Virus record (IMG/VR): IMGVR_UViG_2778261527_000008
DNA: 35,461 nucleotides
Origin: a virus
Lineage: Duplodnaviria; Heunggongvirae; Uroviricota; Caudoviricetes
Strand: one strand, 5' to 3'
Shown here: in pieces, positions 15,421-19,918 of the stretch
Position numbering within the stretch: position 1 is the stretch's first letter
Layout of the letters: each line of letters opens with the position of its first letter
Notes under the pieces: model-generated
Seen by the model: the letters and a program-made list of their open reading frames with translations, nothing else
What the model was told of the DNA's origin: nothing
Databases searched by the model: none
Position numbers and translations under genes: made by a program

Positions 15421-16254
15421 ATGAATATTACACAAGATAACTTAGATATTTTTACGGGGTCGCATGTTGAAGTCTCCGTTTCTACTATGGTCGATAGCCA
15501 GCCGGACTTTTTCGATCCTAGTTTTAGTTCTATTGAGAACGTCGCAGCATTCCCTACGCTAACCGAATCCACAGAGATTGAAACTCTGGAAGAGTACGAT
15601 CAGGACGCTACGGGGAAACTTGCTGGTTATCGTAGACTGGAACCGACAACACTCACATTAAACCGTGTTCTTGACGATGAACATCAAGCAATGTTGATGA
15701 AAGCGGTAGGGGATAAAACACCTTTACGCTTCCGTATGTTCTATGTTGTGAACTCTGGCTATAGTGCTGCTAACACTGGTTACTATGTCATCTATGACGC
15801 TTATGTCACTAGTCACAAAACCCGTGGCGCAGATAACAAAGCTGTAACACTGGAATTTAAACTTGAACCAGATGGCGGGATTTTGGCAAGGGGGATTGCT
15901 ACCGAAGGCCGGATCTTACGTCAGGGTGATTTTGGTTTGGGTGCTGGTGTAAATCCATTCACGGGTCCGATTGACAGCGAGGCATTAGCCGGAAACCGTT
16001 TCGTAACTTACAAGGGAACTGCTAGCGGTAATCCATATTCAACCGACACAGCATTAATTCACCTTCAAGCTAATGAGCATGGCGCATGGCAATTAACCTG
16101 TAATACTTCTGGCGCACCACGTTTACGCGTCCGAAATATTCAGGAAAACGGTCGCTCTGAATGGATCAAGGTATATTCCACCAATGAGAAACCGACACCT
16201 AGCGAAATTGGCGCAGTAGCTAAAACTGATAGAGTCGATTTCGGGGAGTATTGA
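15421..16254 (+). CDS. putative tail-tube-fold protein with C-terminal fiber-like segment (candidate side-fiber anchor/collar)
   Basis: 277 aa; N-terminal half has tube-protein-like pattern; C-terminal KPTPSEIGA motif shared with the downstream fiber. Confidence 0.35.
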   Translation: MNITQDNLDIFTGSHVEVSVSTMVDSQPDFFDPSFSSIENVAAFPTLTESTEIETLEEYDQDATGKLAGYRRLEPTTLTLNRVLDDEHQAMLMKAVGDKTPLRFRMFYVVNSGYSAANTGYYVIYDAYVTSHKTRGADNKAVTLEFKLEPDGGILARGIATEGRILRQGDFGLGAGVNPFTGPIDSEALAGNRFVTYKGTASGNPYSTDTALIHLQANEHGAWQLTCNTSGAPRLRVRNIQENGRSEWIKVYSTNEKPTPSEIGAVAKTDRVDFGEY

Positions 16255-16331
16255 TTCACTTCCTAAATAAAACATGAACGTTGGGAGGTTAACGCCTCCC
16301 TTATTCCTGTTTTATAGTGAGGTGATTCTAG

Positions 16332-19300
16332 ATGCAATCAATCCAATTTAAACGCACACAGACGGCTGGTAAAAAGCCGACGCCGGAACAATTATCACAG
16401 GGTGAGATCGCCTTACAACTGGCGGACCATGTGATTTACACCAAAGACAAAAATAATAATGTAGTTCAAATTAGTGTTTCTCCAGAAAAACACGCTGAAC
16501 TGAATACGAAAGTAGACAATAACAAAACTAGCACTGACCGTGTTATTGCAGCAAATAAGAAAGAAGCTGCTGATAATCTGGCTAGTGCTAAAGCTGAACT
16601 TAATCAGACTATCACTTCTACCCGTGATACCCTCAATGCTTCAATCACTGCTGGCGATACCGCAGCCAACAAACGAATTGATGCTTTGACTACCACAGTA
16701 GGTAACAATAAAACCGAAGCGGCTAACGCTCTGGCGGCTGCTAAGACTGAACTGAATCAGACTATTACTTCAACCCGCGATACTATCAACGCGACAATTA
16801 ACAAGAACAAGACAGATATTAATGCGCGAGTTGATCAGACGAATACCAACGTTACCAACTTAACGAATACTGTCTCAGCAAATAAATCAGCAATAGAAAA
16901 GACGGTAGCGGATAATAAGAAAGATGCTGATTCTAAGATCACCAATCTTACTAGTACGGTCTCTGCGAATAAGACAGCCATTGAAAGAACTGTTGCAAAT
17001 AACAAGGCCAGTGCCGATGCCGCAATTGCCGCAGCTAACCAGCGAATTGATTCGATTGAAGGTAGTGCCGATGCTGCTTACATCAAGAAGAATACCAATA
17101 CTAAGCATGGTGGGTATCTGTTAAGCAAGACAGCTAACTATTTGGAAGACCAGACAGCGAGAGATCTTAACTACTTTGGTGCTTTCCGTACCAATGGTCA
17201 AGATGGACTCATGGATCTAACTCTTAACGTTCCTCACTCTTCCGGTAAAGCGCACGGTCGCGGATTTACTTTCCGTTATGCGTCTGGTGGATCTCGTGTT
17301 GAAACCTATGGTTTTGATAGAGAAGGACAGAAGAACTTTAGCTATAAGATGTATCACGAAGGTGATAAGCCGACTCCTGGCGAGATTGGTGCATACACCA
17401 AAGCCGAAGTTGATAAGATGTTTGTTAAAAACGTCGTTATGTCTGTTCCCAATTCTAGCGAAAACGTATCTGCATATTTCAAATTGGCAACCGCAACAAT
17501 TCCACAAAACGGGCGTAGTGTGTTTTTCCGTATTCATGGTGGTAATGGTTACAACGTTACGGCATATGACCAAGTTGATGTAGTAGAAATTCTTCTCCGT
17601 AGTGGTAACGATAGACCTAAAGGGCTTAACGTAGTTGCATATCGTCGAAATACCGTCAAAGATTTTGATGTATTTGCCGTCAATACATCCGGTGATAACT
17701 ATGACATTTATGTGAAATATCAGCGTTACACTGATAACGTTATTGTTGAATTTGGTAAAAGTGTTTATGTTAATCTGACTGTTCACGATACACCGGAAGC
17801 CACGTTAATTAAACCTTCTGTTGGTGTTATTGGTGGGCGCATCATTACTCTATTCAATACAGAAAATAAGCGTGGTGTGTTGAGTTTTGACGATAACACA
17901 CAAAATAGTTATGATATTGTTCACTTGAGTAATGATAGAGGTACTGGACGAAAATATATTCGTAAATTCCGTAGCAACTATAACGAAATGATCTGGCATG
18001 AGACTGTTCAAGGTTCCAGTTATCGTCTGGCTACTGGTAGCACTGATGCTCAGGAAATTATGACTATTGAATCTAGTAGCTCAATTGCTGGAACTCATAA
18101 AGGTAATATTATTTCTGGTCGTATGCTTTTAAATGGCGGTTCTAATGCTATTACACTGCGCCGACCTGCTGGTCAATCTAATCACATTGCGTTTCAAGAT
18201 AACCGGACTGGAGATATTACGCGTCAAGGTTGGATCGGTTATGCCAATGCTGATACTAACGTTTTTGAATGGTATAGCGATGTAGGTGGTACTTCTATTC
18301 GTCACCACATCGACGGACAGATCGAACTTGCAACTGGTAGAACAAAACGAGTTTATACTAACGCTCAATTCATCTCAATGAATAGCGACGCCTACCGCAT
18401 GATCTACGGTAATTATGGTGCATTCTGGCGTAATGATGGTGATAAAGTTTATCTTCTTTCTACTGCCGAAAATGATAAATTGGGCGGGTGGAATGGAAAC
18501 AGACCGTTCATTTACGATTTGACTAACGGTAAAGTTACTTTAGGCGGTGATGGTAACGAAGGTGCATTAATTCTTGAAAGAGATAGCCGTGCTGCTCGCT
18601 TTAGTAATAACGTATTCTTAGAAAAAGGATTGCTTACTTTCTCTGCGGGTGGGAATCAGTCGATGGATTCTTTCACGATTAACCATTGGGGGAATAGTAA
18701 TGCCAATCGATATAACGTTTTGCAATTCCAGGACACTAGCGGGACTCACTTTACCACTGAACGTAACGGATCTGGTGGTTTGCTTGCTCATTTCCGAGGG
18801 GATTTAACTACCGAAGGAAAATTAACGTGGGGTAAGGGTACAGCTACTTCTAGTTTCAATATTCGTGCTTGGGGTAATAGTGATTCCCGTAAACAGGTTT
18901 TCGAGTGTGTAGATGAAAGTGGTTGGCATTGGTATACCCAACGTCCGGGCGGTCCGGGTACTACGGCAATTGAGTTTGCCATCAACGGTACTGTTAAGCC
19001 TCAAGCAATTCACACTGGCGGTAATATCACGCTTAACGGTGCTGATATTGAATTTCGTCGCACTGGTAATAAGCATATCTGGTTTAGAGATCCAACTGGA
19101 TTAGAACTAGGTTTGATGTATTCCGATGATGCTGGTGTTATTCGCTTCCGTGGTCAGAAACAAGCCCAGACGTGGAAACTTGCGGATAAGATGATTCATC
19201 TTGAATCTGGTAGCGTCGGCGGATCTGATAAAGGTTTGATTCGTGGTAACGTTTCTGGTGGTAGCTGGTCTAGTTGGCGCGATCGTGCATCCGGCTTGCA

Positions 19301-19862
19301 AGTTGATTGCCCTCAATCAACCGATTCCGCTCATAACATCTGGAAAGCTACTCATTGGGGTAAATATCACATTGCAGCAATGGGTGTACACGTTCCTAGC
19401 GGTACTATCGGTAACGCTCTTGTTCGTCTGCATGTTAACGATACTAACTTTGACTTTAACGCTGCTGGTGACTTTACCGCAGGTCGTAACGGTAGCTTTA
19501 ACGATGTTTACATTCGCTCTGACTCCCGTTTGAAGATTAACAAGGAAGAATTACAGGACGGTGCATTAGAGAAAGTAAACTCACTGAAAGTCTACACCTA
19601 CGATAAAGTTAAATCTCTTTCCGATGACACGGTGATTAAACGCGAAGTAGGTATTATTGCTCAGGATCTGGAAGAAGTATTGCCGGAAGCAGTAGGTATT
19701 CAATCCACCGAAGATCCAGAAAATCCAGAAGCAATTAAGACTATTTCTAACTCTGCTGTTAATGCCTTGATTATTAAAGCTATTCAGGAAATGGACGCCA
19801 AATATCAAGCTAAGATTGAAGCATTGACTAAAGAGATTGCCGAACTCAAAGCAACTAAATAA
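16332..19862 (+). CDS. side (L-shaped-type) tail fiber with C-terminal intramolecular chaperone autoproteolytic domain
   Basis: 1176 aa; N-terminal repeats/coiled coil; C-terminal ~125 aa begins RSDSRLKINKEEL, matching the conserved motif of the intramolecular chaperone (peptidase S74) domain of T5 pb1 and endosialidases. Confidence 0.7.
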   Translation: MQSIQFKRTQTAGKKPTPEQLSQGEIALQLADHVIYTKDKNNNVVQISVSPEKHAELNTKVDNNKTSTDRVIAANKKEAADNLASAKAELNQTITSTRDTLNASITAGDTAANKRIDALTTTVGNNKTEAANALAAAKTELNQTITSTRDTINATINKNKTDINARVDQTNTNVTNLTNTVSANKSAIEKTVADNKKDADSKITNLTSTVSANKTAIERTVANNKASADAAIAAANQRIDSIEGSADAAYIKKNTNTKHGGYLLSKTANYLEDQTARDLNYFGAFRTNGQDGLMDLTLNVPHSSGKAHGRGFTFRYASGGSRVETYGFDREGQKNFSYKMYHEGDKPTPGEIGAYTKAEVDKMFVKNVVMSVPNSSENVSAYFKLATATIPQNGRSVFFRIHGGNGYNVTAYDQVDVVEILLRSGNDRPKGLNVVAYRRNTVKDFDVFAVNTSGDNYDIYVKYQRYTDNVIVEFGKSVYVNLTVHDTPEATLIKPSVGVIGGRIITLFNTENKRGVLSFDDNTQNSYDIVHLSNDRGTGRKYIRKFRSNYNEMIWHETVQGSSYRLATGSTDAQEIMTIESSSSIAGTHKGNIISGRMLLNGGSNAITLRRPAGQSNHIAFQDNRTGDITRQGWIGYANADTNVFEWYSDVGGTSIRHHIDGQIELATGRTKRVYTNAQFISMNSDAYRMIYGNYGAFWRNDGDKVYLLSTAENDKLGGWNGNRPFIYDLTNGKVTLGGDGNEGALILERDSRAARFSNNVFLEKGLLTFSAGGNQSMDSFTINHWGNSNANRYNVLQFQDTSGTHFTTERNGSGGLLAHFRGDLTTEGKLTWGKGTATSSFNIRAWGNSDSRKQVFECVDESGWHWYTQRPGGPGTTAIEFAINGTVKPQAIHTGGNITLNGADIEFRRTGNKHIWFRDPTGLELGLMYSDDAGVIRFRGQKQAQTWKLADKMIHLESGSVGGSDKGLIRGNVSGGSWSSWRDRASGLQVDCPQSTDSAHNIWKATHWGKYHIAAMGVHVPSGTIGNALVRLHVNDTNFDFNAAGDFTAGRNGSFNDVYIRSDSRLKINKEELQDGALEKVNSLKVYTYDKVKSLSDDTVIKREVGIIAQDLEEVLPEAVGIQSTEDPENPEAIKTISNSAVNALIIKAIQEMDAKYQAKIEALTKEIAELKATK

Positions 19863-19918
19863 TAAAAGTCGGGGGACTAGTTCCCCCGTAATAACAATTT
19901 TAATTAAGGGGTAATTCT

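Follow-up and report, generated by a model that had tools for sequence, protein, structure and literature searches.

Side fibres set the adsorption rate and the host range of phages and are the parts that are most often re-engineered. Several modes of side-fibre attachment have been described for non-contractile tails: attachment to the C-terminal domain of Dit (monocin) or to the hub (F-type pyocin); a dodecameric Ig-like collar that the N-terminus of the fibre itself forms (Ur-lambda); and a separate collar protein, T5 p132 or DT57C LtfC (PMC12617516, PMC13455828). The solved side-fibre anchors of Gram-negative siphophages and F-type tailocins, i.e. those of Ur-lambda, T5, DT57C, and F-pyocin, are all distal (PMC12617516, PMC13455828). 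Here, we describe a putative side-fibre locus in IMG/VR record IMGVR_UViG_2778261527_000008, a stretch of 35,461 nucleotides (nt) from a virus of the class Caudoviricetes. This stretch, hereafter referred to as the window, represents a complete temperate siphophage genome of 35.5 kb. The probable fibre anchor in this genome is a duplicate of the tail-tube protein. The individual parts of the system (gp37, S74, gp38, and the tube fold) are all known, but no published description of a tube-fold subunit as the base of a side fibre was found.

In T-even phages, the N-terminus of gp37 joins gp36, which is an established feature of the T4 long tail fibre. Lambdoid and T-even phages are a classical example of phages that exchange fibre genes. 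The window encodes a protein of 277 amino acids (aa), which is referred to below as the anchor, and a fibre protein of 1176 aa. Both genes were found on the plus strand where a first-pass annotation had placed them (15421-16254 and 16332-19862, respectively). This annotation regarded the two genes as a self-contained cassette that had been acquired horizontally. We propose, with a probability of about 70%, that the two proteins and a gp38-type adhesin form a three-part accessory side fibre, consisting of a tube-fold anchor, a gp37-type fibre, and the adhesin, on a lambda-like temperate siphophage. This proposal is based on computational analysis.

The distal half-fibre of T-even phages (T2 and Krischvirus; also gp37-gp38 of Salmonella phage S16) shares with the window system the gp37 body with its N-terminal domain, the S74 chaperone, and the Gp38_N adhesin; in addition, the end of the anchor resembles the C-terminal end of gp36. 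Unlike the T-even long tail fibre, the window system belongs to a siphophage virion and possesses neither the gp34/gp35 proximal half nor an attachment to a baseplate. No homologue of gp34 or gp35 was found in the cassette or in the list of open reading frames (ORFs) of the window, and the tail is non-contractile with a lambda-type tip. In its action, the system would be comparable to the distal half-fibre of T-even phages, and it does not qualify as a complete T-even long tail fibre. The individual parts also differ. Of gp36, no more than a putative last module is found, as a fusion to a tail-tube domain. The fibre has a 210-aa repeat extender after its N-terminal domain, unlike T-even gp37. 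The C-terminal two-thirds of the adhesin belong to a class different from that of T-even gp38, one that also occurs in Shiga toxin (Stx) phage 75/02.

T5 and DT57C (p140 ring, p132/LtfC collar, pb1) are also siphophages with a long, S74-folded side fibre and with a minor ring protein of the tube fold, as proposed here. However, the fibres of T5 bind a separate dodecameric Ig-like collar and not the arm of a tube-fold protein (PMC12617516). Domain and structure comparison revealed no collar protein or Ig-like domain in our system, with the C-terminal half of the anchor being modelled at low confidence. Ur-lambda also has an accessory side fibre, Stf/Tfa, next to the J-type central fibre of a lambda-like tail; the distal part of this side fibre is related to T-even gp37. 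In contrast to the fibre genes of the window, which are located upstream of the tube gene, the Stf genes are located downstream of J. The N-terminal Ig-like domains of Stf form a dodecameric collar at the gpV-gpM junction, with four trimers (PMC12617516), whereas the window anchor is a tube paralogue. Also, the window fibre uses an S74 chaperone and a gp38 adhesin instead of Tfa. The tube fold is combined with an outward extra domain in lambda gpV (Ig), SPP1 gp17.1*, and the extended major tail protein of lactococcal 936 phages, where a longer form occurs beside a plain one. These extensions are small Ig, FN3, or carbohydrate-binding decorations, which are encoded by the same gene (often via a frameshift) and spread along the tail. 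By contrast, the window anchor is a separate, diverged paralogue of low expression with a proposed fibre joint, and it carries a whole fibre in most relatives.

Anchor protein

In the best reading of its sequence and structural model, the anchor would be a low-copy duplicate of the tail-tube protein and a good candidate for the attachment site of the fibre. It displays direct sequence paralogy to the resident 157-aa tube protein (29% identity, E 6e-15), and tube proteins were the top structural matches of its model. The anchor also matches phrog_158 at E 3.9e-8; the length of this profile is 376 positions. These results agree well with the first-pass suggestion of a tube-fold anchor. A conventional head-tail connector, which had been named as the possible outcome that would speak against it, was not what the structure search returned.

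Homologues of the anchor (80; E down to 1e-173) were detected in E. coli, Shigella, Salmonella, Providencia, Edwardsiella, and Proteus. The family is annotated only as 'hypothetical protein' or 'tail fiber protein'. The anchor itself matched no Pfam family at E ≤ 0.1, including Phage_T4_gp36 and Ig-like or galectin-like collar domains. A sequence search of PDB chains with the family profile and with the C-terminal domain of the anchor gave no meaningful match.

The tube-fold domain is followed by a glycine-rich linker. Invariant positions of the linker region among 51 homologues are G163, G169, G172, G174, G176, G182, D185, G191, N192, and R193. In the monomer model, the linker has a predicted local distance difference test (pLDDT) score below 50. 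It is still included in the profile match (positions 8-255) in long fused fibres. The part after the linker is a small beta module ending in ...KVYSTNEKPTPSEIGAVAKTDRVDFGEY.

The frequency of optimal codons (Fop) in the anchor gene is 0.53 and the share of rare codons is 0.10; Fop values of genes for other minor proteins are 0.51-0.60. The respective values for the tube gene are 0.74 and 0.01, and Fop reaches 0.80 in the capsid part of the protease-capsid gene. The codon usage of a minor protein suggests that the anchor is not the major tube subunit. Also, the tube gene is followed by a strong terminator of the capsid type, and the anchor gene is not. Two other roles were considered for the 277-aa protein and rejected: that of the tail terminator, since a separate 140-aa terminator is encoded next door; and that of the major tube protein, given the codon usage and the fact that members of this family are mostly fused to whole fibres.

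Fibre protein and its proposed junction with the anchor

The major part of the fibre protein is a gp37 body of the Krischvirus type. Residues 262-1173 share 78% aa identity with residues 71-978 of Phi1 gp37 (over 916 residues). At the nt level, positions 17115-19793 of the window are about 80% identical (75-87%) to many Krischvirus genomes (gp37 of RB49, Phi1, and Ec_Makalu). The protein matches phrog_1699 at E 6.5e-144 and displays a Pfam match to Gp34_trimer (7.6e-24) at residues 627-728. Base composition does not set the fibre gene apart. The extender that precedes the gp37 body contains internal repeats with 18 of 22 residues identical (residues 78-105 vs 129-156, and 175-196 vs 204-225) and gives weak matches to the Pfam families Filament and Apolipoprotein. 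A tandem-repeat search of the 5' part of the gene revealed no repeats in the DNA; they show at the protein level only.

Peptidase_S74 (PF13884) was detected at fibre residues 1063-1121 (profile positions 1-57, E 7.3e-14). The SDSRLK motif is located at residue 1063 (nt 19518), which agrees with the position of about 19515 given in the first-pass annotation. By analogy with other members of this family, the chaperone is predicted to cut itself off before S1063. The fibre had earlier been described as being of the T5 pb1/endosialidase type. This is correct at the level of the S74 family; outside the S74 domain, however, there is no sequence similarity to T5 pb1, and the protein is specifically a T-even gp37 with a presumed gp36-binding N-terminus.

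Since the fibre is a gp37, its natural partner, gp36, was sought in the anchor. BLASTP aligned anchor residues 180-277 with the last 100 aa of Phi1 gp36 from end to end (30% identity, E 2e-5). The same register was obtained by comparing the anchor family profile with Phi1 gp36 using hhalign (probability 88.5%, E 2.7e-6; 182-276 vs 377-496). The similarity extends to the terminal motif, which is DFGEY in the anchor, DFGTF in Phi1 gp36, and DFGYY in T4 gp36. The match covers only the last ~95 residues, which are fused to the tube domain. In a long anchor orthologue from Serratia, Pfam Phage_T4_gp36 was detected above the cut-off.

The first 51 residues of the fibre (MQSIQFKRTQTAGKKPTPEQLSQGEIALQLADHVIYTKDKNNNVVQISV) share 39% identity with residues 4-54 of Phi1 gp37 (E 5e-10) and 32% identity with the N-terminus of T4 gp37 (E 1e-16). 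An anchor ending in D-x-G-x-x and followed by a gp37-type start (IQFKR or a variant thereof) was present in all eight lineages compared. The anchor ends vary between DFGEY, DFGEF, DLGTF, DFGLE, and DEGTF. The gp37-type motif opens the gene directly 3' of the anchor in seven of seven relatives compared. The combination of a gp36-type C-terminus of the anchor and a gp37-type N-terminus of the fibre accounts for how the two proteins would connect. We infer that the C-terminal arm of the anchor and fibre residues 1-51 form a physical joint.

Adhesin

The view of the anchor and fibre genes as a self-contained cassette could not be maintained, because a gene for a gp38-type adhesin (20561-21067), which had been overlooked, sits past the tube gene. 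The system therefore has three genes. The 168-aa adhesin matches Pfam Gp38_N (3.5e-15; 56.1 bits vs a cut-off of 25) and, at full length, phrog_1121 'tail fiber adhesin' (E 1.2e-32). Its N-terminal 40 aa share 65% identity with gp38 of Krischvirus ECD7. Over the full length, the protein is 46% identical to the 'tail fiber adhesine' encoded 3' of the S74 fibre in Stx phage 75/02. The RefSeq name of an orthologue is 'receptor recognizing protein Gp38'. No glycine-rich receptor-binding domain like that of T2/S16 gp38 was detected in the adhesin, and a phmmer search against the PDB was without match.

Within the E. coli relatives, conservation reaches 97-98% over residues 51-168 of the adhesin, its receptor-facing part. 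The N-terminal attachment part occurs in these relatives as two alleles (86% or 100% identity). The most mosaic segment is the fibre shaft. This distribution is the reverse of the hypervariable-tip pattern usual for T2-type gp38.

Gene order and fused anchors in related prophages

The gene order stopper, terminator, anchor, fibre gene(s), tube, two tail assembly chaperones (TAC), and tape measure is also present in five E. coli prophages. The same order was found in Salmonella, Proteus, Serratia, Buttiauxella, a metagenome contig, and the siphophage-like start of the record for Escherichia phage DCP80. After the gp37-type domain, these relatives differ from each other and possess S74 fibres, a Tfa-like chaperone, or small paralogous ORFs. 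Since this order is common to relatives with unrelated fibre bodies, the slot and the anchor are ancestral in the lineage, and the fibre body alone has been swapped. The unusual placement of the fibre gene, which had been taken as a sign of acquisition, is thus the ancestral arrangement.

The Proteus relative encodes an additional 198-aa protein (10882-11478) between the anchor and a 675-aa plug-bearing fibre. It has the plug at its N-terminus, a coiled-coil-like middle part, and a gp36-type DFGTF at its C-terminus, and it is 38% identical to window fibre residues 1-174. Judging from this composition, the protein looks like a stackable, free-standing fibre extender. In the window, such an extender is joined to the gp37 body in one chain.

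Anchor proteins vary in length from 275 to 1209 aa, with a fibre shaft inserted between the KPT repeat and the terminal motif. A search of 1.84 billion (1.84e9) representative proteins with the anchor profile yielded 273 matches, of which 143 (clusters at 50% identity) had E ≤ 1e-10. Most of these 143 are proteins of 600-1500 aa, in which the first ~240 residues correspond to the tube domain and linker. In Serratia, Rouxiella, Kluyvera, and Leclercia, the fused proteins are annotated only as 'tail fiber protein' or 'hypothetical'. Several of them end in S74, Phage_tail_C_2, or 'pyocin knob' domains. Tube domain and fibre are therefore one physical unit in most relatives, and the window contains a version that is split at the gp36/gp37-type joint. 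A scan of genome contigs with the anchor profile returned one locus (Buttiauxella), and no taxonomic census is drawn from it.

A tblastn search of 50,697 phage records with the anchor and a divergent fused relative matched only the DCP80 record and no characterised phage. This record (PQ671644.1; 141 kb; classed as a T4-like Gaprivervirus) contains a complete siphophage structural module of the present prophage type at positions 1-18560. It is the sole record with the anchor family among the phage genomes searched and may be a composite assembly. The Salmonella relative carries three small paralogous ORFs (99, 114, and 99 aa; 14088-15033) between its S74 fibre and the tube gene. Each of them contains W..FDIPNGW and ends in ..W.KF/YRRMG. 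They stand in the place of the gp38-type adhesin and may be alternative tip proteins or chaperones.

Exchange with Krischvirus phages

Among the E. coli relatives, most identity values for the terminator, tube, anchor, and fibre plug fall at 90-100% (92-100% for the plug). The linker and C-terminal module of the anchor share 76-83% identity in a few of these relatives, and the fibre shaft is mosaic (62-97%). Residues 262-600 of the window shaft are 83% identical to Phi1 gp37 vs 64-69% to three prophage relatives. Similarity to Krischvirus at the nt level does not begin before residue 262 of the fibre.

A second patch of the window, positions 931-1351, is 95-97% identical to Krischvirus DNA. 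This patch is unrelated to the fibre and represents a second, more recent exchange between this prophage lineage and Krischvirus. The patch is located in a gene for an LprI-like lysozyme inhibitor (575-1345, minus strand, 256 aa), whose Krischvirus counterpart is a hypothetical gene (Phi1 ORF262 / RB49). The counterpart gene is located a few kb downstream of gp37.

The fibre body is thus drawn from a stock that virulent Krischvirus phages also use, and what is ancestral is the slot with the anchor and the proposed joint. The earlier notion of a horizontally acquired module is thus valid for the fibre body, which has been exchanged (~80% nt and 78% aa identity to Krischvirus gp37), and not for the slot and the anchor.

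Intergenic RNA structures and terminators

The GC hairpins that had been reported after each of the two genes were found at 16283-16300 and 19870-19888. The first of them (GGGAGG-TTAA-CGCCTCCC), which the terminator scan calls terminator-like, is the core of a 77-nt structure; none of 200 shuffled sequences folded as well. The outer stem of this structure pairs the Shine-Dalgarno (SD) sequence of the fibre gene (16316-16325) with bases just 3' of the anchor stop codon. E. coli relatives with variant 5' arms have the same fold. In the Salmonella and Proteus relatives, the sequences are unrelated and the fibre SD is again located in a hairpin, which is preceded by a canonical terminator in Salmonella. 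The fibre SD is thus buried in three lineages that differ in sequence, which would reduce the translation of the fibre. In E. coli, fibre translation may be coupled to the termination of anchor translation.

The hairpin 3' of the fibre gene is identical in five E. coli relatives. Its z score of -0.8 is not significant alone, a T-run on the plus strand is absent, and the scan calls a terminator on the minus strand only. As a plus-strand terminator, this hairpin is weak or ambiguous and not convincing.

Two nearly identical strong intrinsic terminators (GCCCTGCCT..GGTGGGGC and a T-run) are located after the capsid gene (14658-14679) and after the tube gene (20517-20541). The capsid and tube genes alone carry this terminator hairpin, and both have the strongest codon bias. 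It looks as if the two most abundant virion proteins were boosted by a common device. Promoter-like matches were no commoner than expected by chance (14 vs 16.8).

Downstream of the TGA stop codon of the tube gene, the reading frame stays open for another 39 codons (TNEELPEPEPQPEHEAVVIPDVEEVTAKATAKRSRKAKD; 20390-20512), up to just 5' of the terminator. This TGA is kept in five E. coli relatives, in which the frame is open as well; the two indels observed (-9 nt and +6 nt) are both multiples of three. This suggests programmed UGA readthrough, by which a minor form of the tube protein with a longer C-terminus would be made. In more distant relatives, short tails of this kind are encoded directly.

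Proposed assembly and alternative explanations

In the proposed three-part side fibre, the tube-fold domain of the anchor would form a low-copy ring, or part of a ring, in the tail. The C-terminal arms of the anchor, as trimers, would receive the gp37-type N-terminal plug of the fibre, as suggested by the junction of gp37 with gp36 in T-even phages. The fibre would then continue as a coiled-coil-like extender and, further on, as a gp37 shaft folded by the C-terminal S74 chaperone. The gp38-type adhesin would attach to the exposed tip of gp37 and there make contact with the receptor on the cell surface, and the lambda-J-type central fibre would make the final commitment. The RNA structure that buries the ribosome-binding site of the fibre gene may hold the synthesis of the fibre below that of the anchor.

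Several points weigh against this explanation. The C-terminal half of the anchor was modelled at low confidence (pLDDT 36-67), and no solved gp36 structure was present in the PDB copy searched. Part of the similarity to gp36 is due to a fibre repeat (KPT..D/E.GA) that recurs many times in many fibres, so that the case for gp36 in particular depends on the terminal motif and on the end-to-end register. The SD of the anchor gene (AAGGGGTAAT) is the same as that of the tube gene and as strong, and the anchor may therefore be made above ring-level amounts. Between the fibre gene and the adhesin gene lie the tube gene and a strong terminator. A hexameric ring would have six arms and thus two trimeric fibres, which is an awkward symmetry; we know of no precedent for two trimeric fibres on one hexameric tube ring. 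Finally, this is an E. coli prophage without a record of virion production.

With regard to the place of the ring in the tail, we somewhat favour the distal end near the tip because of the analogy to T5 p140 and to the solved fibres of Gram-negative siphophages. With the same parts and the same joint, the ring could also be head-proximal, directly under the terminator, in which case the neck would bear the fibres, as it does the whiskers of T4 or the neck passage structure of lactococcal phages. The anchor gene is indeed located directly 3' of the terminator gene and 5' of the tube gene. In addition, a rough estimate gives ~90 nm for the mature fibre (~1060 residues with a 210-residue helical extender) and ~120 nm for the tail (810-aa tape measure), so that fibres borne at the neck could reach the tip region. 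However, the distal position of all solved anchors of Gram-negative siphophages and F-type tailocins argues against the neck (PMC12617516, PMC13455828), and the map position says little about the place in the virion, since the anchor arose by duplication of the tube gene. We consider a neck ring possible and somewhat less likely than a distal one.

The first-pass interpretation, in which the anchor and a T5 pb1-type fibre were inserted as a unit into a lambda-like operon, is now improbable and largely refuted. The nt identity of the fibre body to Krischvirus gp37, the second Krischvirus-like patch, and the mosaic fibre segments of the E. coli relatives would all fit an acquisition. Krischvirus similarity, however, starts only at residue 262 of the fibre; the anchor is not foreign but paralogous to the resident tube gene; the adhesin gene lies outside the cassette; and relatives with unrelated fibre bodies retain the gene order, the anchor, and the N-terminus of the fibre.

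An equally unlikely explanation is that the 277-aa protein is a decorated tube subunit, which co-polymerises with the 157-aa protein along the whole tail like the extended or Ig-bearing tube proteins of lambda, SPP1, or 936 phages. The C-terminal domain would then be a decoration of the tail surface or a weak adhesin, and the fibre would be attached elsewhere, for example near Dit or J. It is common for tube proteins to have add-on domains at the C-terminus, the phrog_158 profile itself has 376 positions, and the anchor shares both fold and SD with the tube protein. The minor-protein codon usage (Fop 0.53 vs 0.74) does not agree with a subunit of this kind. Moreover, most family members are fused to fibres of 600-1500 aa with S74 or 'pyocin knob' ends, and such proteins cannot be a repeating tube subunit. 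A decorated subunit would also leave aside the gp36-type C-terminal end and the gp37-type start, which is always found in the next gene.

It is very unlikely that the genes are non-functional cargo of a decaying prophage, even though no characterised induced phage of this lineage is known and the only phage-database record with the module (DCP80) looks composite. The structural ORFs are all intact, and the window matches the full insertion of ~35.7 kb in hicB of a relative, an element with genes for recombinase and lysis. In relatives with 84-92% DNA identity, protein conservation is 90-100% for anchor, plug, tube, and terminator, and the indels in this region are in frame. That the 277-aa protein is a conventional head-tail connector or terminator, which resembles the tube protein only by a shared ancient fold, can be practically dismissed given its direct paralogy with the tube protein (E 6e-15), its structural matches, and the terminator (140 aa) and FII-like stopper (96 aa) encoded next door.

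Genome context

A relative that is ~91% identical to the window spans ~35.7 kb within hicB of E. coli MEI003 (NZ_CP071263). This insertion is bounded by a large serine recombinase, and the element carries recombinase and lysis genes. The cassette was detected in 53 of 5426 complete E. coli genomes, with a chromosomal location in every case.

The structural operon starts with genes for a gpA-type terminase, a 164-aa protein, a lambda-type portal, a protease-capsid fusion, the FII-like stopper, and the 140-aa protein. These are followed by the genes for the anchor, the fibre, the tube protein, the 168-aa adhesin, a TAC pair, and the 810-aa tape measure. The operon ends with Dit-like, hub-like, and DUF6950 genes and with a gene for a J-like tip protein, which has the C-terminal receptor-binding domain of lambda J. 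The Dit position 3' of the tape measure is held by a gene with a weak match to the pb9 B-domain. The 140-aa protein was identified as the terminator by a fold search; profile comparison with lambda gpU or gpZ was too weak to use. The presence of Ig_GpJ_C (7.6e-34) and Phage_Tail_Tip in the J-like protein, and of DUF6950 and TAC G/T-like genes, confirms the first-pass statement that the rest of the tail is lambda-like. Coordinates of the features are listed in Table 1.

A prohead protease (Peptidase_S78) and an HK97-type major capsid protein are encoded in one 668-aa ORF (12517-14523), with a very acidic linker between them. With an Fop of 0.80 vs 0.69 overall, codon bias climbs sharply in the capsid part of this ORF. 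ORFs on the minus strand within the fibre and tube genes (e.g. 17217-17786 and 19904-20434) were treated as shadows of the coding strand.

Table 1. Features of the putative side-fibre locus and adjoining tail genes (positions in the window).
Feature	Position	Strand	Remarks
Phage_attach/FII-like stopper gene (96 aa)	14715-15005		
Tail terminator, 140 aa	14989-15411	+	Fold search, well modelled; terminator role thus already filled
Anchor residues 1-163, tail-tube-fold domain	15421-15909	+	Paralogue of the 157-aa tube protein
Anchor residues 164-211, Gly-rich linker	15910-16053	+	Highly conserved; low model confidence
Anchor residues 212-277, one fibre repeat (..KVY..EKPTPSEIGAV..) and C-terminal DFGEY; proposed fibre socket	16054-16254	+	gp36 C-end match
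Structured intergenic RNA	16255-16331	+	Minimum free energy -30.2 kcal/mol, z -6.6
Fibre residues 1-51, gp37-type N-terminal domain; proposed plug	16332-16484	+	IQFKR...GEIAL.L.D..IYTKD
Fibre residues 52-261, Ala/Thr/Asn/Lys-rich repeats; probably alpha-helical coiled-coil extender	16485-17114	+	Absent from gp37
Fibre residues 262-1062, Krischvirus-type gp37 body	17115-19517	+	Distal subunit of T-even long tail fibre
Fibre residues 1063-1176, intramolecular chaperone	19518-19862	+	Peptidase_S74
GC hairpin 3' of fibre gene	19870-19888	+	CGGGGGA-CTAG-TTCCCCCG, 7-bp stem
Major tail tube protein, 157 aa	19919-20392	+	PF16460, PF16461, lambda-like tail tube protein; phrog_158 E 1.9e-21
gp38-type tail-fibre adhesin, 168 aa	20561-21067	+	Gp38_N, phrog_1121

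Implications for phage biology

A diverged tube ring serving as the base of side fibres could be a further mode of attachment, which is widespread and unannotated in enterobacterial prophages, and the junction of the gp36 C-terminus with the gp37 N-terminus could be a joint that is portable across T-even myophages and siphophages. We put this broader view forward tentatively and rate it at slightly below even odds. If the joint is portable, then extenders, shafts, and tips could be stacked and traded across morphotypes. If true, fibres based on a tube ring would represent a new way to mount fibres on a flexible tail, which raises the question of how six arms are matched with trimers. A conserved gp36/gp37-type joint would also explain the continued exchange of fibres between temperate siphophages and virulent T-even phages that share hosts, and it would be a modular connector for swapping receptor-binding fibres between unrelated phage chassis.

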